Under the pieces are notes generated by a model that saw nothing but the letters and a program-made list of their open reading frames with translations, did no database searches and had not been told where the DNA came from. Shown piece after piece: positions 17,053 through 44,865 of a DNA stretch of 64,000 nucleotides. The first letter of the stretch is position 1. Every line of letters begins with the position of its first letter. A program made the translations under genes and the position numbers. Source of the DNA: Salinivirgaceae bacterium (GTDB lineage: Bacteria; Bacteroidota; Bacteroidia; Bacteroidales; SZUA-534). The stretch lies in assembly GCA_017650325.1 (NCBI GenBank), contig JAGCFC010000133.1, positions 3,214 to 67,213 of the forward strand, given 5' to 3'.

Positions 17053-18174
17053 TTATAATTCAGCAATATATTCCATAAATCCTTGCTTGTTTTCGATTGC
17101 TGTGGTTGTCGGTCTGCCCAAATCCTCACGGGCCCCGATTGAGCACTTGACTTCTATAAGGCTTAATTCGTTGGCATTTTTAGCAGCTTGCAGCGCTTTG
17201 TCTAACGCTTCAAACGAATCGACAGAAACAACATTCTTATAGCCGCAAGCCTTTGCAATGGCAACTAAATCTATCTTGCCAGCAACTGTCGGCTGGCCGC
17301 CAACGGTCTCGTGTGCCGAATTGTTGATGACAACGTGAACGAGATTTTTAGGCGCATTGGCACCAATTACGGCCATAGAACCCATATGCATAAGAACCGC
17401 GCCATCACCGTCAATGCACCATATTTTTTTGTCGGGTTTGTTGATAGCGACACCCAACGCAATTGACGAGCTGTGCCCCATAGAACCAACAGTCAGAAAA
17501 TCATATTTATGGCTTTGGTGGTTTGCCTCACGAATTTCAAAAAGTTCGCGGCTGGCCTTGCCCGTTGTCGAGACAATCGGATCCTCACCTGATACACTCA
17601 CAATATGGCGGATGATTTCCTCGCGAAGCATCGTGTTGTTGTTTTTATACTCAACCTTGCCGTCGTAAGAGAGTCCGCCCTTGCGTACCACAAACGCAAC
17701 ATCCTTGCCTTGTGAGAGCAACGATTTGAAATCTACCATCGCTTTCTCGACTTCTTCATCCGTCGTCTCTTTACCAATAATGAACGACGATATTTCCATA
17801 TCGTCAAGAAGTTTCACCGTGACTTCGCCTTGATAAATGTGTTGCGGCTCATCGTGAACACCTGGCTCACCGCGCCAACCAATAACAAAAACCACGGGGA
17901 TAGCATACACCTTGTCGTTCAACAACGATGCAACGGGGTTAATAATATTGCCCTCGCCCGAATTTTGCATATAAACTACTGGCACTTTGCCTGTTGCCAG
18001 ATGATAACCCGCCGCCAAAGCCGTACAGTTACCCTCGTTTGCAGCAATGATATGGTGTTTCGGATCGATACCGTATTTGTTCATCAAACAGTTGCACAAT
18101 GCCTTCAACTGGCTGTCAGGCACACCTGTATAAAAATCGGCGCCTATTATATTTAAAAGATTCTCTACCTTCAT
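17053..18174 (-). CDS. ppd: Phosphonopyruvate decarboxylase, copy 1 (ThDP-dependent)
   Basis: 373 aa. It has GADFYTGVPDSQLK, NEGNCTALAAGY, MQNSGEGN, GWRGEPGVHDEPQH, and the ThDP motif IDGDGAVLMHMG...NN. It overlaps the upstream gene by 4 nt (ATGA). Confidence 0.85.
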   Translation of the reverse strand: MKVENLLNIIGADFYTGVPDSQLKALCNCLMNKYGIDPKHHIIAANEGNCTALAAGYHLATGKVPVVYMQNSGEGNIINPVASLLNDKVYAIPVVFVIGWRGEPGVHDEPQHIYQGEVTVKLLDDMEISSFIIGKETTDEEVEKAMVDFKSLLSQGKDVAFVVRKGGLSYDGKVEYKNNNTMLREEIIRHIVSVSGEDPIVSTTGKASRELFEIREANHQSHKYDFLTVGSMGHSSSIALGVAINKPDKKIWCIDGDGAVLMHMGSMAVIGANAPKNLVHVVINNSAHETVGGQPTVAGKIDLVAIAKACGYKNVVSVDSFEALDKALQAAKNANELSLIEVKCSIGAREDLGRPTTTAIENKQGFMEYIAEL

Positions 18175-19292
18175 TTTAATTTCGATATTTTATGATATAA
18201 CATATCGATAGTGTCCTCTTCAAGCAAGACTGGATTGTTTTTCAATCTTGTCGGATTGACCGATTTTTTCAGAACATCAAAATCACTTTCCGATTTGATT
18301 TCTGGCGCCTTCAATCCTAACGATTCAACTATATTCTTGAATTTAGCAGCCGCATCCATTGGGGACTTCTCTCCCATTGATTCTGCGATTTCCACAAAAA
18401 CAGAGTCAAGATATTCTCTGCCTCGACTATCGATACATTTTACCGTATTCTCAATCATATACGGCCATAATTCACTGACACACAATGCAGCCGCGTGTCC
18501 GTGCGCGATTCCGTAAAGCGATGTTAGTTTATAGCACATTGCGTGCCCCGCTGTCGTCTGAGTAATGTTTATGGCTTTCCCCGCGATGTTCGCTGCCATC
18601 AGCATATTCTTGTTGCCATCGTATTCGTTTTTCAAATACGAATCCATATTATTGAGAATCAACCTTATCGCGTCTTTCGAATATGCCTTGCTCTCATCCG
18701 TCGAATTGACCGACCAAAAGGCCTCTACAGCGTGGCAAAAAGCGTCAAGCATTGTAACCTTGCGCTGATAATCGGGCAATGTTTCAAGTACCGACGGGTC
18801 GAACAAGACAACCTGCGGAATGCAACTGTAATCCGCAATAGACTGTTTGGCGCCATTATAGTAAATAACCGCAAAACGAGTTGCCTCGCTGCCTGTCCCC
18901 GCTGTTGTCGGGATTGCAAAAAACGGAATGTTGTTCGGCTCGATTTTCTGATTTATGTAATCGCTACCCAATGGCATTGTTGCATACAGTTTTATGCATT
19001 TTGCCACATCCATTGTGCTTCCACCGCCTACGGCAAGAATCGAATCGCATTCAGTTTTTCTGAAAACATCCACGCCTTTCACAACCGATTTGTAATCGGG
19101 ATTCGGTTGGTAATCAGAAAAGAAGACGATTCCTATATTGTTCGCAGCAAAAAAATCTATTATGTACTTTCCGACAGAAAGTTTCTTGAAAGACGAATCG
19201 CAGACAACAATAATTTTTTTTATGCCGCGGTCAAGAAATTGACTTACGAATTCATCGTAGTCTTTGTAGGAAAAAATAGCCGTCTGTTCCAC
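18171..19292 (-). CDS. Group III iron-dependent alcohol dehydrogenase, predicted phosphonoacetaldehyde reductase (PhpC/FomC-like)
   Basis: 373 aa. It has AVGGGSTMDVAK, the metal-site histidines (CHAVEAFW, GIAHGHAAAL), and a GTG start overlapping the pepM-1 stop by 1 nt. It sits between pepM and ppd. Confidence 0.7.
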   Translation of the reverse strand: MEQTAIFSYKDYDEFVSQFLDRGIKKIIVVCDSSFKKLSVGKYIIDFFAANNIGIVFFSDYQPNPDYKSVVKGVDVFRKTECDSILAVGGGSTMDVAKCIKLYATMPLGSDYINQKIEPNNIPFFAIPTTAGTGSEATRFAVIYYNGAKQSIADYSCIPQVVLFDPSVLETLPDYQRKVTMLDAFCHAVEAFWSVNSTDESKAYSKDAIRLILNNMDSYLKNEYDGNKNMLMAANIAGKAINITQTTAGHAMCYKLTSLYGIAHGHAAALCVSELWPYMIENTVKCIDSRGREYLDSVFVEIAESMGEKSPMDAAAKFKNIVESLGLKAPEIKSESDFDVLKKSVNPTRLKNNPVLLEEDTIDMLYHKISKLK

Positions 19293-20590
19293 TATTTTGT
19301 ACCAGGGATAAGTTCAAGTATTTCTTTGACACTCATACACATATCGTTTGCCTCGAGCGAGCGGTGATGCGTGAGAATTAATTTTGCAGTGTTCACCATT
19401 GCGGGATAGGCCGAACGCAACATATGGTTTGCGTAGATAACAACATTCACGCCCCAACTTGCAAGTTCCTCTTCAGTTATCCAGTTGTAGGTTGTCGGCA
19501 CTACCACAATCGGTACCGACGTGTGCTTCTGACGGAATTTCTGGCAGAATTCCTTAATGTCCTCACCAGATTTGTTCTTGCTATGAATCATAATGCCATC
19601 GGCACCCGCCTCAACGTATGCGAAACAACGTTCAAGAGCATCTTCAACTGATTTTCCCGCGATAAGGATCTCGCAGCGTGCGATAATCATAAAATCCTGT
19701 GCGATTTGCGCTCTTTTTCCAGCTCTTATTTTTTCAGAAAAACCTTCGATTGAATCTTGCGTTTGGATTGCGTCGGTGCCAAAAAGAGAGTTTTTCTTCA
19801 AGCCGACTTTGTCTTCAATAATTATGGCCGAAACGCCCAACCGTTCCAAAGTCCTGACCGTGAACACAAAATGCTCGATTTTACCGCCAGTGTCACCATC
19901 AAATATGACTGGTTTGGTGGTGCATTCGAGCGCATCATTCAAACCGTGAAGTCTTGTTGTCAAATCAACGGCCTCAATATCAGGTTTGCCCTTGCTTGTG
20001 GAATCTGTCAGCGAACTAGCCCACATTCCGTCAAACTCTTCGGTCTTGTTGTTGACCTTGACTTTCGTCTTCTCAATGATAAGACCTGTCAAACCAGAAT
20101 GGCTTTCCATAATACGCACAATCGGTTTTGCCGCGATAAGACGTCTTAACATTCTCTGACGGATCTCTGGCGTTGTTCCAATCTCGCGAACTTCAGCATT
20201 CAGTGCAGTTGAAGAAATCCCTGGTGTGTATGGAATATCAACTACTTTGCCGCCCCATTTGGCAATACAGTCTATCACTCTTTGCCGTGTTTCCTTCTGA
20301 ACTCCCGTGAGCCAGTCATCACCGTGAACAACATAATCAGGTTTAAGTTTTTCAAGGTTGGGGACATAGTCCAAAGTCGTTTGCGGAACAACTCTTTCGA
20401 CACCCTTGATGTTTGATACTATTTCCGCACGCTGCTCATATGTCAAGTACGGAAGTCTTTTATAACTCGCAATTGCCGCATCTGTTAAAACACCAACGGT
20501 AACCTCTCCGAGTTTCATCGCCTCGTGAATGATGTTCAAGTGCCCGTGATGAATTAAATCGGCACTCATACCGCAATAGACTGTTTTCAT
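19292..20590 (-). CDS. pepM: Cytidylyltransferase-like domain fused to phosphoenolpyruvate mutase, copy 1
   Basis: 432 aa. The N-terminal ~130 aa is TagD/ECT-type ([25 protein letters not shown]). The C-terminal PEP mutase has [28 protein letters not shown] and IIEDK. Confidence 0.9.
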
Positions 20591-22467
20591 ATACTATTTT
20601 GATTTTTAATTATTTTCATCGATTCCGAATCCTTCTTATACTCAATAAAAGGCATAAATGAAAGGAACGCAAACAGCGGGAAACTGAAATGACTGCTGCC
20701 GCTGAACATACTGAAAAACATACAGCACAGATACATTATGAAGAAAATGCCCAACTCCTTGCGACGCTTCCAATATAGCCACAAACTTGCTATCAAAAAG
20801 ATGATATAAACCACACCGCCAATAATACCCGAATATAGGAACGATGAGATGATTGGATTGTGCGGGAAATCGTGGCGATCTGGATTTTTCCAAAAACGTT
20901 CTCCATACCATTCAAGATATTTGAATCCTTGACCAAAGATTTTCTGCTTAGTATCATAGCGTGTCTGCCATAACTCAAGAGCGTAGCGCCAACGGTCGGT
21001 ACGGGTATTCATCAAATAGTTTACTGTGTCTGCACCTTCCTTTACGAAGAAACTGTGAATAACACTATCTGGCAATTGGTCGGCATACATCGGAAGGCCT
21101 GTGGTGTCATCGCAAGTTAGACTTATGTCTTTAACTTCGATTGTGGAACCTGCGCGTAAAGAATTTAAAAAACATTCCGAATTTAATTTGTCAACATTAA
21201 ATTTATATAAAACCTCACAACGATTCCAAACACCATCTATTGATGTAATTGAAACTGGTAGATTATTTCTATAACCATGCCCATCATTTCCTCCCCAACC
21301 CACATAAAAAGGCCGTTCACCTCCTTCCAACACTCTATATGAGAACGAAAGATTGTATATAATATCTTTATGATAAATAATCGGACGACCAGAATAATAG
21401 ATTTGCCAATAGCCATTAGAGCAGCCTCGCGTTACTCTAATGGCACTATCACCATTTTCTGTAGCGACAAGATTAAATCGTATGCAATCGTGCGGTGTCG
21501 GCAAATAATTCCAACCTTCCAAACCACATTTCAAATCACCATTATGGAACAAATTATCGCCAATAGAATAATCATGCCTCGGCTGACATTTCATCTTCTG
21601 TTTGAAATCAAATTCCGAAAACGTAACGCCATCATCGAACAGTGTGTATAACTTATAATACTTGTATTTTTCATCGAATGACAAATCTTCGTTATATATC
21701 TTGTTGAAAGACAAACAAACAACAGTTCCACCAATAATAGAAAAAACGATTGGCATCAAACTAACCGACAATAATTTTTTATCCCAACGGTATTTGAATA
21801 CGGCCAACATAACTAAAACAAAAACGAGTAACGCAAAAAGCACATACCCTCGCCGTGACATGACCGCCGCGATGTTTATTGCTGATATTGCATTGATTAC
21901 AAAAAGAATTCGAACATTTGTTTTCTTATTAACATAAAACTTTACCGACAGAATGATAGATAATATGAAAAATAGAGCATAGAAATTACAATCGTTGACC
22001 AATGTGAAACCTACTCCCTCAAAAAGTTTGGCACCCAATGGGATTGGCGCACCTAACATCGTCAATCCAAACCTAACAATGGCTATCAATCCTGCCAACA
22101 TCGTAAGCAGAAGAATCCATTTCAATAACGCTTCTGTTTTTTCGCCCGCAAAATACAAATCCGCAAAAGCCACGAAATACAACAACAGCAACAGATTGAT
22201 CGATTCTTTCACGACGTTACTCAACGGCGCGAAATGAGCGAAAAACAATGCAATCACCATTAGCGGCAACAAAACTTTACCAATTTTTGGTTTGGCAATT
22301 CCATTTTTCAGCAAATAATATGCAGAATAAACGACACACGGCACAAGTGTCAAGAAAAATAGATACTTATAGCCGATGAACACCGTGCGACAAAAAAATA
22401 ATGCCAGACATAGGGGCATTATTTTCTCAACATTCCGCAGGCGTTCTATGTTATTCATTTTTAGCAT
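20587..22467 (-). CDS. Wzy/O-antigen-ligase-family membrane protein with an inserted CBM-like beta-sandwich domain
   Basis: 626 aa with about 8 N-terminal TM helices. It has the SRRG motif, the family loop signature RWRYALELW...FGQGFK...[17 protein letters not shown], and C-terminal TMs. Residues ~300-455 are soluble and open with [16 protein letters not shown], a CBM4/9-type opening motif. Confidence 0.7.
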
Positions 22468-22501: not shown

Positions 22502-22549
22502 TTCTTTTTTCAATAGTACACTTTATAAAGTGTACTATTGAAAAAAGAA
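22502..22549. repeat. Perfect 48-bp palindrome (24-bp arms, no spacer)
   Basis: TTCTTTTTTCAATAGTACACTTTATAAAGTGTACTATTGAAAAAAGAA was checked base by base. It lies in the only large (279 nt) intergenic gap of the locus. Confidence 0.97.
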
Positions 22550-22746: not shown

Positions 22747-24846
22747 CTACTTAATCAAAAGCGATCTTGTATCGCTACCTATCTTAACAATGTAAATACC
22801 AGAAGCATTGACTCTGATTTTTGCATCTAAATTGTTAGATGTAGCAACAAGACTTCCTTTATTATTATAAACTCGTATTGAATACTTTGCGTTCTTTACA
22901 ACAATAGTGCGTCCAATTGCGTAAACTATATTTTCTGACGTAATCGATTCTTTGATAACTGTTGAATTTGACAAATGTGAACCTTCAGCTATTCGCGTAT
23001 CTGTTACACCACAACCCCGTTCACATATTGCAGTTTCAGTGCCATCTCTATCTATTGTTGCATCGTTGTTATAAATATAGTTTTTGAAATCATGACCTAA
23101 AGCAGGAATAACATCTTGAGTCACTAAAACTGCATTACAAATCGAGCAATGCCTACCTTCTGACAATCCTGTGTTGGTGCATGTTGGTAGAACTGCCGCA
23201 TCAATCACACCTGTGTGTTCTATAACTTTATAAGTTTGTTCCGCATTAGTGACCCATACTCTTTCTGTCTGTCCGGCATATAACACATTCGATTCAAACA
23301 AAACCTTAAACTTATTACTACCCAATGATATATATGTCATTCGTTCATGAGGTTCATTTGACTCAATGGTACCTATAACATTACCAGTCAAGCCATAGTA
23401 TTTATATCGTTCTTCTGACCAAGTATTTGTTTCGGGAATATATTTATAATCAGCAGAAATGGTTAAATTACCGTCAGCATCATAAAAAGATTCACGTTTT
23501 GAAGTACACCATTCATGTTCGGAACATTGGTAGTAGGAGATTTCAACTATTTGATTTCCATTATTATCATACATGTATTCATGGTTATCCGTACATTCGT
23601 TACCATAAAAAAGAGAGGATCGTACTAACTTCCCATTATCATCATAAACATATTCTGTTTTCCAATTATTCATCCACAAATTTGCTGTTTGATTCCAACT
23701 GTAATGATTTCTTATTGTTTTGTTTCCATTGGCATCGTAAATCCATTCATCTTTTACCTCACCAACCCATTCATTCTTCTCGGAATTCCAATTGAATTTA
23801 GCATCAAGTATTCGGTTACCATTTGCATCATAATCATATTCTGTTTTCGCGCAATCTATCCATGAGTTTGTCTCTGCTTTAAAAATGCTTAATACATAAA
23901 GTATTTGTTGACCAATTTCGTTGTAAGTATATTCGAATTTTCTTGTATTCACCAATGCATTATGTTCCAATTTCCATTCTGAACAAGTTACTACGACTTT
24001 GTTTTCTTTTGAATTATAAACATATTCTGTATGTGTTTTATTCAACCAAGACTGAGTTAATTCGTTTCTCACATAGACATTACTCGATATGGGCTTCCCA
24101 ATTTCATTGAAAGTCGAATCTTCTTTTCGTTCGCACAGCCATGAGTCAGGGTCGTTACTCCAAACGTAATCAGCATAATGGATTTGATGACCATTATCAT
24201 CATATTTATATTCTTTTTTATAAATATACCTCCATGCGTTTATCTCTGTATCCCAGCCATAACGAATTTCAAAAGTTATTTTTTTATCACCATTAAAAGT
24301 ATATTCTGTAAAATATCCATATCCATTGCCATCCCAAATATTTATTTCGGGATTCCATCGATAACGAGCAAAAGATGTTCTATTACCATAATCATCATAC
24401 ATTGTTTCGTCTTTTGTGTCGTTATTCCATGTATTTGTTTCCGCATTCCAACGATATTCAATAGAAAGTGTCATATTTCCATTTGCATCATAGGCATACT
24501 CTGTTTTTCCAACATTATTCCACAAGTTTGTTGTAACGTTCCACCTATAATTAATACTAAGTATCTTATTTCCAGCCACGTCATAAGTGTATTCATGTTT
24601 AATACTTTCCTCCCAAGATCCTGTTTGGTTATTCTTTTTGTAGATAACATACTGGATTGCTCTTCCTTTAGAGTCATATATATATTCATATTTGTTTGTG
24701 CCTCGAACCTCAGATTCTTTCACTATTTTGCAAACAGAGTGATCTAATATGCCATTAGAATACCACTCATTATCAAAAAAACTCTGAGCATTTGCAAAAA
24801 AAGCACTCATCAATATGATACCAATAGTAAAAACAAATCTTTTCAT
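22747..24846 (-). CDS. T9SS-secreted repeat protein (YD-like 31-residue repeats, Cys-rich module, type A C-terminal sorting domain)
   Basis: 699 aa with a signal peptide (MKRFVFTIGIILMSAFFANAQ). It has about 14 tandem repeats of K-x-E-Y-x-Y-D-x-x-G-N-x6-Y-x-W-N-x2-T-N-x-W. The C-terminus ...ASGIYIVKIGSDTRSLLIK is typical of the T9SS type A CTD. Confidence 0.75.
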   Translation of the reverse strand: MKRFVFTIGIILMSAFFANAQSFFDNEWYSNGILDHSVCKIVKESEVRGTNKYEYIYDSKGRAIQYVIYKKNNQTGSWEESIKHEYTYDVAGNKILSINYRWNVTTNLWNNVGKTEYAYDANGNMTLSIEYRWNAETNTWNNDTKDETMYDDYGNRTSFARYRWNPEINIWDGNGYGYFTEYTFNGDKKITFEIRYGWDTEINAWRYIYKKEYKYDDNGHQIHYADYVWSNDPDSWLCERKEDSTFNEIGKPISSNVYVRNELTQSWLNKTHTEYVYNSKENKVVVTCSEWKLEHNALVNTRKFEYTYNEIGQQILYVLSIFKAETNSWIDCAKTEYDYDANGNRILDAKFNWNSEKNEWVGEVKDEWIYDANGNKTIRNHYSWNQTANLWMNNWKTEYVYDDNGKLVRSSLFYGNECTDNHEYMYDNNGNQIVEISYYQCSEHEWCTSKRESFYDADGNLTISADYKYIPETNTWSEERYKYYGLTGNVIGTIESNEPHERMTYISLGSNKFKVLFESNVLYAGQTERVWVTNAEQTYKVIEHTGVIDAAVLPTCTNTGLSEGRHCSICNAVLVTQDVIPALGHDFKNYIYNNDATIDRDGTETAICERGCGVTDTRIAEGSHLSNSTVIKESITSENIVYAIGRTIVVKNAKYSIRVYNNKGSLVATSNNLDAKIRVNASGIYIVKIGSDTRSLLIK

Positions 24847-32014: not shown

Positions 32015-32722
32015 TTATCCATTATTATTTCTACATTTCATAATCCCCTCAAACATATAAAAATCAAGCGGTGTTGTTATTTTAATATTCTCTGGTGGAC
32101 CTATAACTTTAGGAACAGATCTGTTATACATTTGCATCAAAGTAACAGAATCAATCACATCATTATTGCCTTTTGCTGTTTCTCTTTCATACAAATCCAA
32201 TATTTCACTAAGTATGAAACACTGTGGCGCTCTTAATAAGAAACACTGCTCACGAGGAATAATAGTTCGAGAATCACCACATTCTCGATATATGGTTTCA
32301 ATAGCCGGCGAACATACTACTGCAGAACCATTTTTATTTGTACATTCAATCGCCTCAGAAATAGTTTTATGATCAATCAATGGTCGAACTCCGTCATGAA
32401 TTAACACGACTGCCTCTTCATAATACTTTTTTGCACAGCGTAAGCCTATTAAACGAGATTCATGTCCAGTTTTGCCACCAGACACAATATCTTTTACTTT
32501 ATTAAGACCATATTCCCGAACTAAATCTTCTGTCTTTTTAATCCATTGTTCAATACAAACGACAATAATACCATCTATAATATCTAGTTGTTGAAAGACA
32601 TTAATTGTATAGACAATTATAGGCATACCACCAACTTCTAAAAATTGTTTTGGAATATCGCCCAAGTTCATACGCTTGCCTACTCCGCCTGCAAAGATCA
32701 CAGCCACATTTTTCATTTTCAA
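32015..32722 (-). CDS. IspD/TarI-family cytidylyltransferase (CDP-polyol-type)
   Basis: 235 aa. The N-terminal VAVIFAGGVGKRM...PKQFL is typical of the IspD/TarI family. Confidence 0.8.
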   Translation of the reverse strand: MKMKNVAVIFAGGVGKRMNLGDIPKQFLEVGGMPIIVYTINVFQQLDIIDGIIVVCIEQWIKKTEDLVREYGLNKVKDIVSGGKTGHESRLIGLRCAKKYYEEAVVLIHDGVRPLIDHKTISEAIECTNKNGSAVVCSPAIETIYRECGDSRTIIPREQCFLLRAPQCFILSEILDLYERETAKGNNDVIDSVTLMQMYNRSVPKVIGPPENIKITTPLDFYMFEGIMKCRNNNG

Positions 32723-36437: not shown

Positions 36438-37249
36438 TCCGCCAAGTTCATGTACTCTTTTACAAACACTTCCATTTCATCTTGTTCTTTCTTTAGCGTA
36501 ATGGCATGCATTGCATCCGGCTTATCTTTTCGTGGTGTCATATAACTTATACCATATGAACTTTTAAGTACAGTATCGTAATCTTTAACTATCATTAATT
36601 TCTTATCCTCAAAATTAGTAAGAATATAATGAGTATTAATTGCGGCGGGCAAAACCATACTACTTCCAACTCTCGTGTCGTTAGACCGATGAACGAATGA
36701 TTTATTACCTTGCAGTTGTTTCATAAACCATTTAGCCAGTCTTATTCGAAATCTATATGGTATTATTTGTGACATGTAAACCAAAGCATTAATAAAAAAC
36801 TTATTTACCCCCTTATACAATCCATTCAAATTAGACATTCTTTGGTCAGAAATTGTTCTGGTCATCAAAATAAAAAATTTTGTTCCCGCCATTTTTAACC
36901 GCTGTACAAATTGCTTTTCTGAGATATAGTCATAAACAAATATATCCGCCCAAACTACCGGACAACCATTTCTTTTCATAACGAATTGAGGAAATCGATT
37001 AATATCAACGAATGCGAAACCTCTCGATAATTTAATTGTTTTCATCAATAAACAGAACTTATCAAAATTTTCACGATCCATTGTAATATCTGCATCATCA
37101 TCCCACGCAATAAACCCTTTTTCCCGTATAGCTCCTAACAAAGTTCCTCCATGAAGTGAATATTTGATTCCATTTTGTACACATAATTTATGAAAATTCT
37201 CTAAAAGAATTAACAATTCTTTGTGTATCATTTCTATATCTTTCGACAT
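36434..37249 (-). CDS. licD: LicD-family phosphotransferase
   Basis: 271 aa. It has HGGTLLGAIREKGFIAWDDDADITM. Confidence 0.8.
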   Translation of the reverse strand: MSKDIEMIHKELLILLENFHKLCVQNGIKYSLHGGTLLGAIREKGFIAWDDDADITMDRENFDKFCLLMKTIKLSRGFAFVDINRFPQFVMKRNGCPVVWADIFVYDYISEKQFVQRLKMAGTKFFILMTRTISDQRMSNLNGLYKGVNKFFINALVYMSQIIPYRFRIRLAKWFMKQLQGNKSFVHRSNDTRVGSSMVLPAAINTHYILTNFEDKKLMIVKDYDTVLKSSYGISYMTPRKDKPDAMHAITLKKEQDEMEVFVKEYMNLAE

Positions 37250-37273: not shown

Positions 37274-38023
37274 TTAATATATATGCTGCGGTGCACGTTC
37301 TTTTTCTGGTGGAAGTTGCATATAATCGCCAAATTGTTTTTTTAGATAATCTTCATATCTTGTAATAATAAAAAACTCCTTATTTTCAAATTTGTGCAAT
37401 TCATAGCCATCCATTATATTATCTTTATATTGGTATGAGATTAACTTGAACTTATCATTAAATATACTTAAATGCTTGCTTCCTTTTTTATTACCAATTT
37501 GAGAGACTTTATCATACCGAGAAAAAAGATTCTTCTTATTAAAAAAATGACCCAAAAAGGCTGTAACTTTAATACAAAAAGAATAAAACCAAGAATACTC
37601 CCTATACATAGAGTTTTCACGAAGCATTCCTTGCAATACCATCAATCTTATTATCTGAATTTTGTTAACGATTTTACTATTAGGGACCCTATCCATTACA
37701 AATAAATCTATTGAAGGTACATATCCGTTAATTTTGTGACATTTACGGACACGATAAACCCATTGATCTTGTTCTAAAATATACTCCAGATCCGTGGCAT
37801 TACTCATTGCTATAATAAATTTCTCATAATTACAACGGTCGAACATAATATCAAAATCATCATCCCATGGGATAAAACCGTTATGTCGGATCGCACCCAA
37901 AAGTGAACCACCGGTCAGGCTGTATTTAATTCCATTCGTTTCACAAAACGAATGAATAAAGCACATCAAATCAAGTAATTCATTATGTAAATTGCCTAAT
38001 CCGTACGATTCTTTTTTTGTCAT
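37274..38023 (-). CDS. licD: LicD-family phosphotransferase
   Basis: 249 aa. It has TGGSLLGAIRHNGFIPWDDDFDIMF. Confidence 0.8.
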   Translation of the reverse strand: MTKKESYGLGNLHNELLDLMCFIHSFCETNGIKYSLTGGSLLGAIRHNGFIPWDDDFDIMFDRCNYEKFIIAMSNATDLEYILEQDQWVYRVRKCHKINGYVPSIDLFVMDRVPNSKIVNKIQIIRLMVLQGMLRENSMYREYSWFYSFCIKVTAFLGHFFNKKNLFSRYDKVSQIGNKKGSKHLSIFNDKFKLISYQYKDNIMDGYELHKFENKEFFIITRYEDYLKKQFGDYMQLPPEKERAPQHIY

Positions 38024-38073: not shown

Positions 38074-38997
38074 TCAAATATTAACGAATTTAAGTATCAT
38101 ATTTACAATAGATGTACTATCCATGCCATACTGTTGTCGCAAATAATGCTGATTGCCCACTCGTATGCTATATTCATCATTTAAACCAATCCGTAACAAT
38201 CTTGCCCTTTTAAATCGCATTTCTGCCATAACTTCTGCCACAGCACTTCCGAAACCTCCGATAATATTATGTTCCTCGACTGTAACAATAAGATCAGTTT
38301 CTCTGGACACAAATTCTATTGTTTCTTTGTCAATAGGTTTAACTGTAGGGAATGTATAAATTATTGGATTGTATCCTATTTTTTGGAGTTTATCGTATGC
38401 TGCAGTTACTTCTTCAAATATAGCACCCGTGGAAAAAATCGCAATATCTTTGCCATCATGAACTTTTATTGCTTTACCGATTTCAAAATTTTCAATTTTG
38501 TTATGTATTCTTTTTTCACCACCGCGACCTAAACGTAAATATGCTGTTCCTTTTGTTTTTGCTAAAACTTTTGTACACTCTTCTGCCTCAACCAAATCTG
38601 CAGGAGCCATAACCACAACATCTGGTAACGCTCTAAGAATGGCCAAATCTTCAGTGGCTTGATGACTCATTCCAAGAGATCCATAAACAAATCCACCTCC
38701 GACACATACTACTTTAACATTTGCTTTATGATAAGCACAATCATTTCGTATTTGTTCTAAGCATCTTAAAGTTGGAAAATTTCCAATACTATAAGTAAAC
38801 ACAGTTTTCCCTTCCATTGCCATTCCTGCAGCAACAGAAGTCATATTCTGTTCCGCGATTCCGGCATTGGTAAATTGATTAGGACATTGTTCCCAATATG
38901 GTTTTAATACACCAAAACCAAGGTCACCAGTAACCAATTCTATATTTTTATTCTCTTTGGCTAAACCAATTAGCGTTTTTACAAATGTATCTCTCAT
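38074..38997 (-). CDS. Transketolase-family protein, C-terminal (pyrimidine-binding) subunit
   Basis: 307 aa. It has ...TGDLGFGV..., FTNAGIAEQNMTSVAAGMA, and a C-terminal transketolase_C-like region. Confidence 0.85.
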   Translation of the reverse strand: MRDTFVKTLIGLAKENKNIELVTGDLGFGVLKPYWEQCPNQFTNAGIAEQNMTSVAAGMAMEGKTVFTYSIGNFPTLRCLEQIRNDCAYHKANVKVVCVGGGFVYGSLGMSHQATEDLAILRALPDVVVMAPADLVEAEECTKVLAKTKGTAYLRLGRGGEKRIHNKIENFEIGKAIKVHDGKDIAIFSTGAIFEEVTAAYDKLQKIGYNPIIYTFPTVKPIDKETIEFVSRETDLIVTVEEHNIIGGFGSAVAEVMAEMRFKRARLLRIGLNDEYSIRVGNQHYLRQQYGMDSTSIVNMILKFVNI

Positions 38998-40010
38998 AGT
39001 GAGGTATTATGAACAAATTCTCTACTACCCGGCTTGGCCTCTACTCTCCGCATTTTTTCCGGGTAAGTAGTATTCCATGTTTTCGAAAATGTATGGTCGT
39101 TTCCTATATCATCTGTTTTTGTTGGCATTTTTGGATTTGGAATACCATTGGGCGTATAAGGATCAACTATACCTCTTGGCATAGATTGGTGCAATTCATT
39201 TACTGAACAATCGTACTCCCAACCATCATGCGGGAATCGATAATGCCATAGAATATCATTTTCCATAAATGATATTCCATACCCTTTAATAGTATCCGCT
39301 ATTATAACAGTCGGCTTATGGGGAACTATATTACCGTATTCTTTAGATTTATTAAACGCTTCTTTTAATTCTTTGTGATCATGGCCATTAATTTCAATGA
39401 CATTCCATCCGAATGCATTCCATTTGTTTGCAAAATCCTCTAATTCAAAAGTATTTTCATTGAAATCAAGACTTTGCATCCGGTTATGATCTACTATTGC
39501 AATTAAATTATTCAATCGAAAGTGATTGGCGAACAAAGCGGCCTCCCAAACTGCCCCCTCGTTGCATTCTCCATCACCTAAAACAACAAATACACGATGA
39601 TCTGTCAATCCATCTTTTTTTGCTGCATATGCCATACCACAAGCAGCAGACAAACCATGACCTAAAGAACCTGTTGAAAAATCAACTCCAGGCAAATGAT
39701 GTGACACATGACCAGAAAGACGACTCCCATTAGCATAGTGAGTTTTTAACTCCTCAACGGGGAAAAAACCAGACTCTGCAAGTGCTGCATAAATACTAGC
39801 ACCAGCATGTCCCTTTGATAAAATAAACCTATCCCTTCCATTCCATTTTGGATTATCGGATTTATAATTCAAAACATTGCTATAAAGCATAGCAATAATA
39901 TCTGCAACTGACATTATTGCTCCGATATGGCTGCCTCCTGACAAATGTGTCATTTCAACTCCATGTCGCCTAATGAGCCATGCCAACTGTTCACTTGTTA
40001 GTTTCTTCAT
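38994..40010 (-). CDS. Transketolase-family protein, N-terminal (ThDP-binding) subunit with a C-terminal extension
   Basis: 338 aa. It has SGGSHIG, SKGHAG, GSLGHGLS and the ThDP motif GDGECNEGAVWEA. About 75 aa follow the canonical ...WHYRFP end. It overlaps the partner gene by 4 nt. Confidence 0.85.
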   Translation of the reverse strand: MKKLTSEQLAWLIRRHGVEMTHLSGGSHIGAIMSVADIIAMLYSNVLNYKSDNPKWNGRDRFILSKGHAGASIYAALAESGFFPVEELKTHYANGSRLSGHVSHHLPGVDFSTGSLGHGLSAACGMAYAAKKDGLTDHRVFVVLGDGECNEGAVWEAALFANHFRLNNLIAIVDHNRMQSLDFNENTFELEDFANKWNAFGWNVIEINGHDHKELKEAFNKSKEYGNIVPHKPTVIIADTIKGYGISFMENDILWHYRFPHDGWEYDCSVNELHQSMPRGIVDPYTPNGIPNPKMPTKTDDIGNDHTFSKTWNTTYPEKMRRVEAKPGSREFVHNTSL

Positions 40011-40011
40011 G

Positions 40012-40953
40012 CTATAGTTTATCTTTTGATACGTTATCCAACAACTCTAATTCTTCGACAGTAAGATTCCAATCTGTACCTTCTATGTTTTCGGAGATTT
40101 GGGCTGGTCTTTTGGCTCCAACAAGGACAACAGAATCTCCTAATTTGTCAAGAATAAAACGTATGGCAACCGCAGGAATGGGTTTATTGTGCTCTATCGC
40201 AATTTTTTTCATTACATCAACAATTTCCAAATTCTTCACCAGTTTATCTCCATGGAAATTGACGTATATATCTCTACTTCGTCTATCATCGGAACCAAAT
40301 ACTATCGTTTTATCGTATTTCCCTGTAAGAACACCTTGTCCCAAACTACCCCAAGTTAATGGGCTGATAGAATAATTTTTACTTAACTTATATAGATCGC
40401 TCTCATTTTTCCTACAAGCCAAACTATACTCATCTTGCACACTTACAATCTTACCTACAAATGGTTTTATTTCTTCAAATTCAGTTTCATGAATATTAGA
40501 AAGACCATAATAACGAATTTTGCCTGATTCTTTTATTCTTTCAAGAGTTTCAATAACAATATCAAGAGGTGTAGCATCTCTGTAATGAACTTGATAAAGA
40601 TCAATATAATCTGTTTTTAAACGTTTTAAAGATCTATCGAGCGCCACTTTTATATATTCGGGGCTATTATCATAAAATGTCTTTCCATTTTCAACACGAA
40701 CACCAAATTTATCTGCAATTACCACACTGTTTCTCTTAGTACCCAATGCTTTACTAAGTGTAATCTCGCTTTGTCCCAATCCATATGTATCTGCCGTATC
40801 AAAGATAGTAATACCATTATCAATAGCCGATTGCACTGCATGAATCAGTTCGTTCTCTTGCACATTTCCCCAACCATAACCTCCCATAGGGCAACCGCCC
40901 ATACACAATCTAGATACTTTAAGAATAGAGTTTTTTAGTGTTATATATTCCAT
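40012..40953 (-). CDS. Aldo/keto reductase
   Basis: 313 aa. It has FDTADTYG, ...KFG..., YIDLYQVH and ...YYGLSN..., the classic AKR signatures. Confidence 0.85.
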   Translation of the reverse strand: MEYITLKNSILKVSRLCMGGCPMGGYGWGNVQENELIHAVQSAIDNGITIFDTADTYGLGQSEITLSKALGTKRNSVVIADKFGVRVENGKTFYDNSPEYIKVALDRSLKRLKTDYIDLYQVHYRDATPLDIVIETLERIKESGKIRYYGLSNIHETEFEEIKPFVGKIVSVQDEYSLACRKNESDLYKLSKNYSISPLTWGSLGQGVLTGKYDKTIVFGSDDRRSRDIYVNFHGDKLVKNLEIVDVMKKIAIEHNKPIPAVAIRFILDKLGDSVVLVGAKRPAQISENIEGTDWNLTVEELELLDNVSKDKL

Positions 40954-40967: not shown

Positions 40968-41636
40968 TTATCTATGTTCTTTCTTAAATAAATACCCGTA
41001 TGTTTTTTGTAAAACTTTCAATATAGTTTTAAAGAAAATTCCACAATCCGTGGCAAGACTAACAGTTTTTGCATATTTTATTCTTAATGCATTTTTTTGG
41101 GGAAGAACATATTGTTCATACTTTTCATCGGCATTTTCTGAACCAACAATTTCATCTAAATTAATAAATTCTATTGAACTAAAATCTGTTATACCAGGAC
41201 GAACTGTTAATATTATTTTTTCTTCACCTTTATATTGTGAAGTATATTTGAGTAACTCTGGTCGAGGGCCTATAAAACTCATATTTCCACAAAGTATATT
41301 GATCAGATTAGCAGTTTCATCAAGTTTTGTTTTCCTCAGTATGCGTCCCACTTTAGTAATTCTTGGATCATGCATTGCTGTAGTTCCCCCTCCTATTTGA
41401 TCTGCATTTTTTACCATTGTTCGGAATTTAAAGATCTTGAATGGTATGTCATTAAATCCGCCTCGCTGTGGTCTATAAAAAACAGGACGCCCATCTTCTA
41501 TAAGTATCGTTAATGAAATAAATAAGAACAAAGGTATTAAGCAAATCATTAAGAAAAACGCAGTTATAAAATCTATAACTCTTTTTATAAAACGATTGTA
41601 AATACCATTAGTTTGTATATCAATATTATCACTCAT
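40968..41636 (-). CDS. Small monotopic phosphoglycosyl transferase (PglC/WcfS-like initiating sugar transferase)
   Basis: 222 aa. It has one N-terminal re-entrant helix, FKFRTM, KLDETANL and IGPRPE. Confidence 0.85.
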   Translation of the reverse strand: MSDNIDIQTNGIYNRFIKRVIDFITAFFLMICLIPLFLFISLTILIEDGRPVFYRPQRGGFNDIPFKIFKFRTMVKNADQIGGGTTAMHDPRITKVGRILRKTKLDETANLINILCGNMSFIGPRPELLKYTSQYKGEEKIILTVRPGITDFSSIEFINLDEIVGSENADEKYEQYVLPQKNALRIKYAKTVSLATDCGIFFKTILKVLQKTYGYLFKKEHR

Positions 41637-41654: not shown

Positions 41655-42398
41655 TTATGGTTCTACAACTAATCTAAAACCTATACTTGACGCTTTTTTA
41701 TTTAAAGGATACGCTCTTCGCGCTGAAAGATGCAGACACCACGCCGTAGTTGTATCATTGGTAATTGCACCACCCCTAAAAGGATACATAAGTTTGTCTA
41801 TGTCTGCAGATAAATCTTGACATATTTCAAAAACATTACCCGTCATATCGTACAATCCTAGTTCATTAGGATTCTTTGTAGTCACAGCATGCGTTCTATC
41901 TCCTGCATTGTTTTTAAACCAAGCTACCTCATCAATATCATCACTTCCTGAATACTTTTTATCAGTTGATTTCTTTCCTCCCCGGGCTGCGTACTCCCAT
42001 TCCGCTTCAAATGGTAAACGAAATTGTTGACCTGTTATTTCATTAAGTTTCTTAATAAACGCATGCACATCATACCATGAAACATTTTCTACAGGGTAAT
42101 TGCCATCTCTATTTTTAAAGTACGATGGATTGCTACCCATAACGGCGAACCATAATTCTTGAGTTACCTCGGTTTCTCCAATAAGAAAATCATCAACTAT
42201 AACTTTGTGAACAGGCCGTTCGTTTTCGCAGGCCTCGTCTCCTTGTCCTGGTGTGGCACCCATCATAAACGAGCCGCCCTCAACAGCTATCATTTTAAAT
42301 TTTATACCATTAACTTCGAATTCACGGTCTGAAATTGTACTACACGAATCAAGCATAACACACATTATCACAACAACAAATGCCTTTAATGTTTTCAT
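41655..42398 (-). CDS. FGE-sulfatase/SUMF1-fold lipoprotein, probably not a true formylglycine-generating enzyme
   Basis: 247 aa with lipobox ...MLDSCS. It has WYDVHAFIKKLNE, GNVFEICQD and IGFRLV. Only one Cys sits in the region where FGE carries its catalytic Cys pair. Confidence 0.7.
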   Translation of the reverse strand: MKTLKAFVVVIMCVMLDSCSTISDREFEVNGIKFKMIAVEGGSFMMGATPGQGDEACENERPVHKVIVDDFLIGETEVTQELWFAVMGSNPSYFKNRDGNYPVENVSWYDVHAFIKKLNEITGQQFRLPFEAEWEYAARGGKKSTDKKYSGSDDIDEVAWFKNNAGDRTHAVTTKNPNELGLYDMTGNVFEICQDLSADIDKLMYPFRGGAITNDTTTAWCLHLSARRAYPLNKKASSIGFRLVVEP

Positions 42399-42437: not shown

Positions 42438-43019
42438 CTAAATAAGCATTTGATACTCCGACACATTATTCAAACTACCCGACAAACAATATCCTACATC
42501 CGTTTTTGATAAAACTCCAGTTTTCTCAAGATTTATGGTGGTTGTTAGAATGTCTTTGTTACTGAAAAAATCTTGCGGGTAACCCACTTCCCTAATAATA
42601 TATTCGATGTCCTTAATGGCAGAATAATTGCAAATGCTGAGTATGCCTACTATTGCCGAAGCTATTATCAACGATTTGTTATCAAATATGGAGTTAACAA
42701 ACGTGGCGCTTTGCAATAAATATGGGATACTACGCCTATATGATTCTTTAATACACGAATCGACAGTTTTAAGCATATGCTCCAAAGTTTGCTTCGTGTC
42801 GGCGTCGTACTGGCTTTGTAGATTTTTAATTTCAATTGAAAGAGCATCTATCTCATCGAAATACGCCAAACGAGGATCTTCGATATCAAAACAATTTCTC
42901 TTCCCAAAAATGTTTAGCATCAATGCCGATTTATGCAGCCGAAGTCTGTCGAAAGGTGAAAGTTCGGTCTTCAACCTCATCAGAATCAGCATACATAATA
43001 TTGCTTTTGAATCGCTCAC
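42438..43019 (-). CDS. Hypothetical protein, helical; no family recognised
   Basis: 193 aa. It is co-directional with the operon, with 22-nt and 39-nt gaps to its neighbours. Confidence 0.5.
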   Translation of the reverse strand: MSDSKAILCMLILMRLKTELSPFDRLRLHKSALMLNIFGKRNCFDIEDPRLAYFDEIDALSIEIKNLQSQYDADTKQTLEHMLKTVDSCIKESYRRSIPYLLQSATFVNSIFDNKSLIIASAIVGILSICNYSAIKDIEYIIREVGYPQDFFSNKDILTTTINLEKTGVLSKTDVGYCLSGSLNNVSEYQMLI

Positions 43020-43041: not shown

Positions 43042-44295
43042 TTACTCAAAACACCTTCGAACAATTTCAATTACAACATTTTGTTCCGCAATAGTCATTT
43101 TGTTGTCACTGGGTAGACATAGACCGCGAGCGAAGACATCAGCACCAATATCATTGCTTACCCCATTGACATAGTCAGGAACAAATGGACACATGTTGTA
43201 AAGCGGTTGCAAGTGCATCGGTTTCCAAATAGGACGCCCCTCGACATTGTATTTTGCAAGAGTCTCAAGTATTTCGGTTGGACAACTTTTCCCCTTTACC
43301 GGTGTATATGTTGCTTCCGTGTCTGTTCTTTTTTGAGGACACATGGCATCTGTGTCAATAAGCAGACACGAAAGCCAATAATTTGGTTGACTGTTTTTGA
43401 CATCGTACGGATTCAGCGCAATCGGCAATCCTTTCAAGCCCTCTTTATATCGCTCATATATTGCTTTTTTTTGAGCAATATGCTCATCAAGATGCCCCAT
43501 CTGACCGCGTATCACTCCTGCAATAATATTCGACATACGATAGTTATAACCCATATCTTCATGTTGATACCATGGCGCTGCCTCACGCGACTGAGTTGAC
43601 CATTTGCGGACTTTGTCGGCGTCTTCCTTGCTGTCAGTAAGGAACATACCTCCCGACGAGCCTGTGATTATCTTATTACCATTGAAACTGATTGCTCCAA
43701 AATCACCAAATGAGCCTGTTTCCCTACCTTTATATTTTGCACCCAATGACTCTGCTGCATCTTCAACAATAAGCGCACCATGACGATCGCAAACAGCGCG
43801 GATTTCATCAATTTTGGCAGGAATACCATAAAGATGCGCAATCACCACCAACTTAACCTCGGGATATAACTCAAAGGCCCGCTCAAGTGCGGCAGGGCTG
43901 ATATTCCATGTATCATACTCCGTATCGATAAAGACCGTCTCCCCACCTTCATATGCCACAGAATTGACCGTTGCATTAAAAGTCATATCGGAACAAAACA
44001 CCTTGTGACCTTGAAGAGTTCCGCAATTTGGTTTTGCCTGTCCATATAGTTTTTCTCCGGCAAGTTTGGTCGCCAAGTGAAGCGCTGCAGTTCCACACGA
44101 AAGCGCGACTGCATATTTAACCCCAATACGCTCTGCCACTATTCGTTCCACCTCGTTGATGTTCTCACCGGCTGTAGTTATCCAATTCTTATCAAAAGCA
44201 TCGTTTACCCACTTTTGCTCGTCACCATGCATTGTAGGCGACGACAGCCAAACCTTCTTTTCAAACGGCTTTATGTCGTTCCGATTTTGAAACAT
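43042..44295 (-). CDS. DegT/DnrJ/EryC1/StrS-family PLP-dependent sugar aminotransferase (WcfR/PglE-like)
   Basis: 417 aa. It has ...AVALSCGTAALHLA..., DAAESLGA, and SFNGNKIITGSSGGM with the PLP lysine. Confidence 0.9.
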   Translation of the reverse strand: MFQNRNDIKPFEKKVWLSSPTMHGDEQKWVNDAFDKNWITTAGENINEVERIVAERIGVKYAVALSCGTAALHLATKLAGEKLYGQAKPNCGTLQGHKVFCSDMTFNATVNSVAYEGGETVFIDTEYDTWNISPAALERAFELYPEVKLVVIAHLYGIPAKIDEIRAVCDRHGALIVEDAAESLGAKYKGRETGSFGDFGAISFNGNKIITGSSGGMFLTDSKEDADKVRKWSTQSREAAPWYQHEDMGYNYRMSNIIAGVIRGQMGHLDEHIAQKKAIYERYKEGLKGLPIALNPYDVKNSQPNYWLSCLLIDTDAMCPQKRTDTEATYTPVKGKSCPTEILETLAKYNVEGRPIWKPMHLQPLYNMCPFVPDYVNGVSNDIGADVFARGLCLPSDNKMTIAEQNVVIEIVRRCFE

Positions 44296-44361
44296 TTCTA
44301 TTCTGTTTTTAGGCTCTAGGCTTCAGGCACTAGGCATTATGTTATTCAATTAATCAATTAT

Positions 44362-44865
44362 TCAGTTAATCAATCCTTCCAACTGTCCGCCTGGCAAATC
44401 AACTGCTATGTTAGCCAAACCATCAAGAACAATAACAAAGCGTTTTTTACCGTTTATGCGGCTCACAACGCCCTGTAATCCATCAAATTGTCCGTCGTGA
44501 ATTGTTACTTTGTCACCCACAGCAAAATCGACACTCTCAAGTTTGACATCAGACGCACTGCACACTGCCATGAAATCGTTCATCTGCTTATCGCTCACAA
44601 CCATACTTGAATTTGAATTGCGATCGACAAGATAATGCACATCGTATTTCATAACATTAACTATGGTAAAACGGTTTTCTGCTTCAACATGAACAAAAAC
44701 CATCGATGGCAGCACAAGTACTTCTATCTTTTTCTTGCGCCCGTGGCCGTAGTAGTGGTATTCAGTTATGGTGGGCAGGAAGTACTCCACTCCCATCGTC
44801 TGTAGCACGGTTCTAACAGCTTTCTCCTGACGCGGCTTTGTCTTGAGCACATACCAATTTGCCAT
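44362..44865 (-). CDS. upxY: UpxY-family (NusG-like) capsule-locus transcription antiterminator
   Basis: The start is taken at MANWYVLKTKPRQEKAV..., an NGN domain. The C-terminal KOW reads GDKVTIHDGQFDGLQGVV. The ORF-track start at 44913 is rejected as an upstream extension. Confidence 0.85.
   Translation of the reverse strand: MANWYVLKTKPRQEKAVRTVLQTMGVEYFLPTITEYHYYGHGRKKKIEVLVLPSMVFVHVEAENRFTIVNVMKYDVHYLVDRNSNSSMVVSDKQMNDFMAVCSASDVKLESVDFAVGDKVTIHDGQFDGLQGVVSRINGKKRFVIVLDGLANIAVDLPGGQLEGLIN

Follow-up and report, generated by a model that had tools for sequence, protein, structure and literature searches.

In the assembly of pneumococcal teichoic acid (lic and tar genes, TacF), an amino-sugar primer, an IspD/TarI-type enzyme, LicD transferases fed with CDP- or CMP-activated donors, a LicC-type enzyme, a MOP-family flippase and a Wzy-like polymerase are used together, and several sugars per repeat (Glc, GalNAc) are added by Leloir glycosyltransferases (GTs). 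Here we describe a locus that shares all of these elements except the GTs, for which no match was found. It consists of 26 open reading frames (ORFs; g1 to g26) that lie in a row on the minus strand from 44913 (or the ATG at 44865) to 17053 of a 64-kb window (64,000 nucleotides, the whole stretch of DNA analysed) from a rumen or gut Salinivirgaceae-like Bacteroidales bacterium. We lean, with a confidence a little above even, towards regarding it as a Wzx/Wzy surface-polymer locus whose repeat would be built by one sugar-phosphate transfer and three LicD phosphotransfers, with no Leloir GT.

In the pneumococcus, TarJ is a medium-chain reductase acting before cytidylylation and choline is supplied via LicA/LicB, whereas our locus contains a short-chain dehydrogenase/reductase (SDR) of the CDP-ketose reductase type and two phosphonate pathways. 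Indeed, no member of the ADH_zinc (TarJ type), choline kinase or LicB-type families was found among the 26 ORFs. Furthermore, the present organism is Gram-negative and its locus has a UpxY leader. A preliminary description of this DNA had compared the gene logic with that of pneumococcal-type teichoic acid; the LicD proteins, the supply of a CDP-polyol and the LicC-like g20 agree with this comparison, whereas TarJ and LicA/LicB have no counterpart. It took the putative product to be a sugar-poor polymer rich in polyol-phosphate and phosphonate. The decorations of the enterococcal polysaccharide antigen (EPA) of E. faecalis also share with our locus a variable Wzx/Wzy locus, LicD and an O-antigen-ligase-like Wzy. 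For EPA, it has been proposed that LicD takes ribitol-phosphate from a CDP donor made by TarI and joins it to a sugar carried on undecaprenol (PMC7188991). The EPA loci differ in that they carry GT2 and GT4 enzymes, have multi-sugar repeats and lack phosphonate genes (PMC7188991).

The Pnt pathway and polysaccharide B of B. fragilis share with our locus a fusion of phosphoenolpyruvate (PEP) mutase (Ppm) and cytidylyltransferase, a phosphonopyruvate decarboxylase (Ppd), a LicC/PntC-like enzyme and LicD-like transferases (PMC6697681, PMC8942020). Polysaccharide B bears 2-aminoethylphosphonate (AEP), whereas both cassettes of our locus are without an AEP transaminase and one appears to follow the route through an iron-containing alcohol dehydrogenase (Fe-ADH) to 2-hydroxyethylphosphonate (HEP). 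The other cassette, g16-g21, with a metallophosphoesterase, an extended SDR, a DUF6564 protein and an oxidoreductase of the lactate dehydrogenase (LDH) fold, is an undescribed set. In addition, polysaccharide B is an ordinary capsule whose multi-sugar repeats are built by glycosyltransferases. The cytidylyltransferase domain of Fom1 makes CMP-2-hydroxyethylphosphonate (PMC6697681), and the Streptomyces fosfomycin enzymes Fom1, Fom2 and FomC correspond at the family level to the adjacent g24-g26 (cytidylyltransferase-Ppm fusion, Ppd and Fe-ADH). Our locus has no Fom3/Fom4 homologues, and given its surface-polymer setting, its CMP-phosphonate is presumably a LicD donor and not a precursor of an antibiotic.

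HS5.18/HS5.17 of C. jejuni and Mnp1/Mnp2 of the pneumococcus combine a cytidylyltransferase with an extended SDR acting on an open-chain CDP-ketose (PMC10918830), and g14/g15 are of the same types; AbpA/AbpB is another CDP-alditol synthase pair to which they can be likened at the family level. The C. jejuni capsule differs in its export by an ABC transporter and in having the alditol phosphate joined to heptose in a sugar-containing repeat. On alpha-dystroglycan, an IspD-type CDP-alditol synthase (ISPD) feeds several LicD-family transferases (FKTN, FKRP) in sequence (PMC4873967), but that system is eukaryotic and protein-linked, adds two units only without polymerisation, and uses no phosphonates. 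With the UpxY capsule loci of Bacteroidales our locus shares UpxY as the first gene, but neither UpxZ after UpxY nor several GTs were found here. Judged by its gene families, the logic appears closest to pneumococcal teichoic acid and the EPA decorations, combined with Pnt phosphonate tailoring. Since the GT, TarJ, LicA/LicB and AEP transaminase features of these systems are missing, the locus would work like the known systems and be a member of none. Our literature searches brought up no earlier account of a locus of this type, nor of two cassettes that it contains, namely a phosphoglycosyl transferase (PGT)-aldo-keto reductase (AKR)-transketolase cassette and a six-gene phosphonate unit.

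Families were assigned by Pfam and NCBIfam scans of all 26 proteins. No GT family was matched by any of the 26 ORFs at E<=0.01, and no GT gene was found elsewhere in the 64-kb window, the rest of which consists of housekeeping genes and one SusC/SusD pair. When ten GT1, GT2, GT61 and TagF-like proteins from related loci were compared with the 26 ORFs (phmmer --max), only noise of at most 5 bits was obtained. The locus contains no Leloir glycosyltransferase, as had been noticed earlier from the lack of GT-A or GT-B signatures. Single-sequence PDB searches with g3, g20, g21 and g23 gave nothing significant, and these proteins were resolved through profiles or predicted structures. The Rossmann-like N-terminus of g21 raised the possibility of a GT-B enzyme, which was rejected because the fold search gave LDH and malate dehydrogenase (MDH) structures. 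Likewise, g20 was rejected as a GT-A enzyme on its GxGTRF-type motif and LicC match, and g3 was rejected as a glycosyltransferase on its all-alpha fold with a winged helix in the AlphaFold2 model. Hence the three ORFs for which a fold check had been proposed (g3, 42438-43019; g20, 26052-26792; g21, 24880-26055) all proved to be non-GT by structure or profile.

All 26 ORFs run in one direction, as previously described. They are intact and tightly packed, with 23 of 25 junctions no longer than 50 nt and many 4-nt overlaps. The gaps in order were 66, 22, 39, 18, 14, 1, -4, 50, 24, -4, -4 and -8 nt from g1 to g13 and 37, 2, 41, 10, -4, -4, -4, -4, 33, 279, -4, -1 and -4 nt from g13 to g26; the exceptions are thus g1-g2 (66 nt) and g22-g23 (279 nt). 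The Pfam and NCBIfam matches agreed with the preliminary inventory: UpxY, the DegT aminotransferase, the small PGT, Wzx and the three LicD proteins were each confirmed. Of the two proteins listed as Wzy or O-antigen ligase, g11 matches Wzy_C and g23 is linked to it via its homologues. The "several" nucleotidyltransferases are four, namely g14, the N-terminal domains of g16 and g24 (PF01467) and g20, and the two phosphonate cassettes correspond to two Ppm-Ppd pairs with the EDKxxxxxNS motif in both Ppm proteins. The PGT is g5 (40968-41636) and not the ORF at 42438-43019 (g3). Absent from that inventory were the FGE-sulfatase-like g4, the aldo-keto reductase g6, the split transketolase g7/g8, the extended SDRs g15 and g19, the metallophosphoesterase g18, the Fe-ADH g25 and the identity of g22 as a secreted repeat protein.

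The genes for assembly lie in the middle of the row. The hallmarks of a self-contained Wzx/Wzy pathway, namely a PGT for initiation, a flippase of the MOP family and a Wzy, occur together in the locus, all above the family cutoffs (PF02397, PF01943 and PF04932). The Wzy-type polymerase g11 (35121..36437; PF04932, E=1.4e-20) has 11 predicted transmembrane segments and is followed by the Wzx flippase g12 (33673..35124; PF01943, E=2e-20). The LicD-family phosphotransferases are g9 (37274..38023; PF04991, E=1.1e-24), g10 (36434..37249; E=4.3e-26) and g13 (32760..33680; E=1.2e-46), and the LicD motif GGTLLGAxRHxGFIxWDDDxD was present in all three. No Wza/Wzc-type export gene was found by the Pfam scans of the 26 ORFs.

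Adjoining g13 are the putative CDP-alditol genes, an IspD-like cytidylyltransferase and an extended SDR spaced by 2 nt. The best PDB match of g14 (32015..32722; IspD/TarI-type sugar-phosphate cytidylyltransferase, PF01128, E=8.2e-34) was 4JIS, a ribitol-5-P cytidylyltransferase (E=1e-29). That of g15 (30981..32012), a candidate CDP-ketose reductase, was 8V4G and 8V4H over the full length (E=4e-45), which are structures of C. jejuni HS5.17, identified as the CDP-6-D-fructose reductase (PMC10918830). These matches suggest that g14 and g15 most likely cytidylylate a ketose phosphate and then reduce it to a CDP-alditol. Because g15 is closest to HS5.17, cytidylylation would come first and reduction second, unlike TarI/TarJ in both order and enzyme type; the TarI/TarJ-like route to a CDP-polyol that was initially proposed does not fit g15, whose closest relative is not TarJ. 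The alditol may accordingly be glucitol, mannitol or arabinitol rather than ribitol.

We then compared the order of the genes with that in other genomes. The order from g5 to g15 (PGT, AKR, transketolase N part, transketolase C part, LicD, LicD, Wzy, Wzx, LicD, IspD, SDR) was identical in metagenome-assembled genomes (MAGs) of Lachnospiraceae (L015, L018) and Oscillospiraceae (L037), with 37-81% protein identity. An exact-match DNA search extended L015 by only ~500 nt, and metagenome contigs supplied the rest: rumen contigs (L152, L153) that are 94% identical to one such MAG locus extend the Lachnospiraceae locus past the SDR. There, two PntC-like nucleotidyltransferases and an ABC importer are followed by the phosphonate genes Ppm, metallophosphoesterase, SDR, DUF6564, g21 homologue and Ppd. 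Hence g5-g21 is colinear with a Firmicutes (Lachnospiraceae) locus. The 5' border of the Firmicutes locus (L015) consists of TilS, Hpt and FtsH and then a CapD/PglF-like dehydratase, the 3' border (related contig L154) consists of pyrimidine-biosynthesis genes, and no GT was found between the TilS/Hpt/FtsH and pyrimidine-gene borders. The synteny thus indicates that the absence of GTs from g5-g21 is no local accident. Being colinear, bounded by housekeeping genes and GT-less, the Firmicutes locus speaks for a functioning rather than a decayed GT-less set, and the retention of this arrangement between Bacteroidales and Lachnospiraceae/Oscillospiraceae at 40-80% protein identity argues for long-term selection on the gene set. 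The odd GT-less design therefore looks real and functional.

In the Lachnospiraceae contig L152, the two LicC/PntC-like nucleotidyltransferases, one of which has an N-terminal MarR-type helix-turn-helix (HTH), and the ABC importer occupy 9091-14564; a counterpart region was observed in L159 and L163 around 10000-14700. A homologue of the HTH-nucleotidyltransferase lies beside an AEP transaminase-Ppm-Ppd set in L163, a human-gut contig. These genes suggest that the Lachnospiraceae version takes up and activates an external phosphonate or choline-like compound.

The locus had been described as one 26-gene operon. Instead, it is a mosaic of a Salinivirgaceae-type head (g1-g4), a horizontally acquired block (g5-g21), the secreted g22 and a lineage-conserved tail (g23-g26), and the 279-nt gap with a strong hairpin precedes the tail. 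The GC content is 0.30-0.39 for g3-g23 vs 0.42-0.46 for g1-g2, g24-g26 and the flanks. Such a clear mosaic with GC steps could be a product of recent recombination that has lost its GTs and no longer makes anything, and a truncated g18 and a split g26 on a contig of the same species (L002) point the same way. The 26 of 26 intact and closely packed ORFs speak against such decay, as does the retention of the GT-less arrangement from Bacteroidales to Lachnospiraceae/Oscillospiraceae. Furthermore, an identical g20 was found on 10 metagenome contigs, of which the 6 shown come from 6 different samples, and the gene order in these 6 is unchanged as far as each contig extends. We consider a dead mosaic very improbable.

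The acquired block begins with a cassette of its own. The small monotopic PGT g5 (40968..41636; Bac_transf, PF02397, E=3e-51) is 60-72% identical to the PGTs of Firmicutes cassettes vs 35-41% to native Salinivirgaceae PGTs. It is followed by the aldo-keto reductase g6 (40012..40953; PF00248, E=1.8e-57) and the split transketolase g7 and g8 (38074..40010; PF00456, PF02779, PF02780), whose N part lies at 38994-40010 and C part at 38074-38997. This four-gene unit (38074-41636) was present in 66-74 of 80 genome loci (L014-L093), mostly polysaccharide loci, of Firmicutes, Akkermansia, Planctomycetes, Actinobacteria and Bacteroides, its proteins being 60-88% identical; g6 was found in 66 of the 80, and the split transketolase is 65-88% identical across the 80 loci from several phyla. 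The IspD and SDR pair was also present in only 5 of the 80, which argues that the AKR and transketolase serve the initiating step and not the supply of alditol. Their constant company with the PGT makes a role of g6 and g7/g8 in initiation probable. More speculatively, they might use phosphonoacetaldehyde or a nucleotide-keto-sugar as the acceptor and form an unprecedented building block.

The second half of the block is the first phosphonate cassette, the six-gene unit g16-g21 (24880-30939). Its first gene encodes a cytidylyltransferase-PEP mutase fusion (g16, 29638..30939; PF01467; TIGR02320, 392.7 bits) with the Ppm motif EDKKGLKKNS at residue 260, and its second a phosphonopyruvate decarboxylase (g17, 28500..29627; TIGR03297, 509.9 bits); both scores, like those of the corresponding pair in the tail, are above the cutoffs. 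These are followed by a YfcE-like metallophosphoesterase (g18, 27778..28503; PF12850, PF00149) and an extended SDR of the nucleotide-sugar type (g19, 26789..27781; PF16363, PF01370), whose PDB matches were dTDP-glucose dehydratases and UDP-sugar epimerases (E=1e-18). The product of g20 (26052..26792) is a DUF6564 protein (PF20202, E=1.3e-88) that we regard as a LicC/PntC-like cytidylyltransferase: the best match of a profile of 24 family members was pneumococcal LicC (1JYK; E=0.004, nearly full length), and some g20 homologues matched PF12804, the LicC/PntC family. For g21 (24880..26055), Pfam and NCBIfam gave only a weak saccharopine-dehydrogenase N-terminal match. Its AlphaFold2 model (pLDDT 86) has an LDH/MDH-like two-domain fold, and Foldseek matched LDH and MDH structures with TM-scores of 0.5-0.65, as for an NAD(P)-dependent oxidoreductase.

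There were 2973 homologues of g21, the best 120 of which, at 65-77% identity, include proteins of Bacteroidales, Treponema, Clostridia and a Methanomethylophilaceae archaeon. The six-gene unit itself also occurs in Bacteroides intestinalis, Prevotellaceae, Lachnospiraceae, Treponema and a Methanomethylophilaceae archaeon. We examined the loci L007-L010, L148-L150 and L152-L153; g18 was kept in L007-L009, L148-L150 and L152, and the unit of a Eubacteriales MAG (L010) is without the metallophosphoesterase. No AEP transaminase was called beside the unit in these loci. Among our 26 ORFs, no Aminotran_5 or class III aminotransferase was found either, the sole aminotransferase being the DegT-type g2. 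LicD genes often lie beside or inside the unit in the loci examined, and in L008 and L009 a LicD gene directly adjoins the g20 homologue. Together with the LicC-like character of g20, this fits the earlier suggestion that phosphonates stand where phosphocholine sits in the pneumococcal polymer. In Pseudobutyrivibrio, the unit adjoins a flagellin gene, which hints at flagellin modification.

The tail starts after the 279-nt gap with g23 (20587..22467), a membrane protein of the Wzy_C (O-antigen ligase/polymerase) family with an inserted periplasmic domain resembling a carbohydrate-binding module (CBM). No Pfam match was obtained for g23 itself; among 20 sampled from its 630 homologues, 14 had Wzy_C and 2 had CBM_4_9. 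No similarity between g11 and g23 was detectable beyond the Wzy_C motif region. The second phosphonate cassette follows: g24 (19292..20590) is a Fom1-like cytidylyltransferase-PEP mutase fusion (PF01467; TIGR02320, 415 bits), g25 (18171..19292) an iron-containing alcohol dehydrogenase (PF00465, PF25137), and g26 (17053..18174) a phosphonopyruvate decarboxylase (TIGR03297, 473 bits). The identity of g24 was 63% to g16 and 97-98% to proteins of Salinivirgaceae MAGs. Although g25 scored 135 bits with TIGR03405 (Phn_Fe-ADH), below the cutoff of 423, its gene sits between Ppm and Ppd, and it is likely to be a phosphonoacetaldehyde reductase making 2-hydroxyethylphosphonate. By analogy with Fom1, the cassette g24-g26 should make CMP-2-hydroxyethylphosphonate.

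The closest relatives of g23 are encoded in MAGs of Salinivirgaceae and other Bacteroidales, where g23, g24, g25 and g26 keep their order together with the three genes that follow the locus downstream. Across these MAGs g24-g26 are 82-98% identical vs 57-83% for g23, whose position is kept in the Salinivirgaceae MAGs while its sequence varies. The HEP-type cassette is thus a constant element that closes a hypervariable glycan locus on its 3' side, and g23 co-varies with the variable part. A cassette fixed beside many different variable regions suggests general decoration, and the locus might supply only a primer and decorations, the LicD proteins adding alditol-phosphate and phosphonates to a glycan backbone made by GTs elsewhere. 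Only 64 kb of the genome is visible, and other loci with the PGT-AKR-transketolase cassette or the six-gene phosphonate unit usually contain GT genes, both of which are compatible with this explanation. Against it, PGT, Wzx and Wzy are all encoded within the locus itself, and the colinear, housekeeping-bounded Firmicutes locus without GTs is hard to explain if partner GTs are needed nearby. UpxY-led loci of Bacteroidales are, besides, normally self-contained. On balance, a role confined to priming and decoration seems to us rather unlikely.

Between the block and the tail lies g22 (22747..24846), which is not biosynthetic. This 699-aa secreted repeat protein has DUF3836/YD-like repeats (PF12930, E=3.4e-19), a cysteine-rich segment and a C-terminal sorting domain of the type IX secretion system (T9SS), the matches to which (PF18962 and TIGR04183) are weak and below the curated cutoffs. 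It is embedded between biosynthetic genes and is missing from the equivalent loci of related Salinivirgaceae MAGs. At 53249-54643 of the window lies the gene for another T9SS protein, of 464 aa, which has a CHU_C type IX secretion signal domain and, together with g22, indicates that the organism uses T9SS. With a T9SS cargo gene inside the row and this second one nearby, a g23 of the Wzy_C/O-antigen ligase family whose position is kept across the lineage, and no Wza/Wzc-type export genes, the product might instead be no long capsule but a short anionic unit or oligomer, joined by g23 to an anchor of the lipid A-core type, as in the anionic lipopolysaccharide (A-LPS) of Porphyromonas, possibly as an anchor for T9SS cargo such as g22. 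However, Firmicutes lack LPS and yet keep the separate Wzy g11 along with the rest of the block. Moreover, the absence of g22 from related loci means that the T9SS link may be accidental, and the sub-cutoff scores of its sorting domain count against that link as well. This explanation is, in our view, improbable.

The sequence data directly show the gene content, the family assignments, the absence of GTs, the origin as a mosaic and the conservation across phyla. From gene content and family precedent, we infer the chemistry, the pairing of LicD proteins with donors and the polymer structure as follows. The PGT g5 would load one sugar-1-phosphate onto undecaprenyl phosphate, the sugar probably being of the 6-deoxy-amino-HexNAc type because of the DegT aminotransferase g2. 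A ketose phosphate would be cytidylylated by g14 and the CDP-ketose reduced to a CDP-alditol by g15. Meanwhile, g24, g26 and g25 would convert PEP via phosphonopyruvate and phosphonoacetaldehyde to 2-hydroxyethylphosphonate, and the N-terminal cytidylyltransferase domain of g24 would form the CMP conjugate, like Fom1. The cassette g16-g21 would turn phosphonoacetaldehyde into a second phosphonate, with CMP activation by the g16 domain and/or g20. The three LicD genes match in number these three routes to activated donors (g14/g15, g16-g21 and g24-g26), and g9, g10 and g13 would add to the lipid-linked unit an alditol-phosphate and both phosphonyl groups. After g12 (Wzx) has flipped the unit, g11 (Wzy) would polymerise it through the reducing-end sugar to a poly(glycosyl-alditol-phosphate) with phosphonate decorations, and g23 would ligate the chain to its anchor or act as a second polymerase. 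In a bolder form, which we put forward only tentatively and hold to be doubtful, the product here and in Lachnospiraceae would be a Wzy-polymerised "phosphono-teichoic acid" with one sugar joined to an alditol-phosphate and two different phosphonates per repeat, in which LicD proteins replace all Leloir GTs. One of the two phosphonates would then be a new compound from the six-gene cassette without AEP transaminase.

Several observations weigh against a GT-less Wzx/Wzy polymer. No UDP-HexNAc 4,6-dehydratase for the DegT step was found in the window, and since g5, unlike g2, is not native to the head module, the two may act on different sugars. Most PGT-AKR-transketolase loci, for example those of Ruminococcus flavefaciens 007c and a Eubacterium MAG, carry GT1/GT2 genes, so that this cassette alone does not imply a GT-less product. 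GTs located beyond the 64-kb window could possibly act in trans. The 279-nt gap, its hairpin and the backbone-like conservation of g24-g26 mean that the tail may be transcribed and used independently. On the same-species contig L002, g18 is truncated (186 aa; 8310-8870) and g26 is split (133 and 177 aa; 18619-19582), which reflects either an assembly error or strain-level decay.

The hairpin in question, a perfect 22-bp one at 22502..22549 of the minus strand, lies in the sole long intergenic gap, between g22 and g23. It has a predicted dG of -27.7 kcal/mol (z-score -9.6), and its sequence is unique in the window. Its 5' flank is a run of U and its 3' flank a run of A, so it is not a canonical terminator whichever way it is read; it could be a boundary between transcripts or a place of processing.

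At the head of the row, g1 (44362..44913) is a UpxY-family NusG-like antiterminator (NF033644, 143.7 bits against a cutoff of 100; PF02357, E=1.7e-12). The NusG match covers the longest ORF only from residue 19-20 onwards, and the true start is therefore likely to be 44865. The DegT/LegC/PseC-type sugar aminotransferase g2 (43042..44295; PF01041, E=2.8e-76; TIGR04181, 295 bits, below the cutoff) keeps its position in the Salinivirgaceae loci L011 and L012. The conserved protein g3 (42438..43019) is predicted to be all-alpha with a C-terminal winged helix (AlphaFold2, pLDDT 92). It gave no Pfam or NCBIfam match, a PDB fold search of its model gave nothing at E<0.001, and its 66 homologues are exclusively from Bacteroidales/Salinivirgaceae. 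UpxZ was not found directly after UpxY, the second gene being the DegT aminotransferase and g3 having no informative fold match; g3 was rejected as UpxZ because no match supported it, and it might be a regulator in place of UpxZ. The FGE-sulfatase-fold protein g4 (41655..42398; PF03781, E=3.2e-37), with an N-terminal hydrophobic segment, adjoins g3 in L011-L013. The module UpxY-DegT-g3-g4-PGT is kept in Salinivirgaceae MAGs and is followed there by quite different genes; g3 and g4 are fixed partners of UpxY, DegT and PGT in the polysaccharide loci of this lineage.

A hairpin resembling an intrinsic terminator, with a GC stem and a run of seven T, was read from the sequence at 45042..45070 on the minus strand. 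It closes the upstream gene, which makes g1 a new beginning for the row. The same strand carries immediately upstream (45092-50647) a SusC/SusD-like pair and a 272-aa protein without a family match, and this strong terminator stands between them and the locus. No convincing repeats of an invertible promoter were found upstream of g1, where only a weak 20-nt inverted repeat with 75% complementarity was seen. The Bacteroides -7 motif TAnnTTTG was found neither in the leader nor in the intergenic regions checked. Scans for sigma-70 promoters and terminators were uninformative for this Bacteroidales genome, and Rfam gave no RNA family across the whole window.

Two common cassettes, the PGT-AKR-split transketolase unit and the six-gene phosphonate unit (the latter also in other Clostridia), were brought to light and are now directly testable. 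If the proposed reading is true, a Wzx/Wzy pathway could build its repeat with phosphotransferases alone, which would widen the rules by which capsules and O-antigens are predicted. Gram-negative gut anaerobes would then make a phosphonate-rich, teichoic-acid-like polymer, apparently shared with Lachnospiraceae by gene transfer, and this would matter for phage receptors, for recognition by the immune system and for the cycling of phosphorus in rumen and gut.

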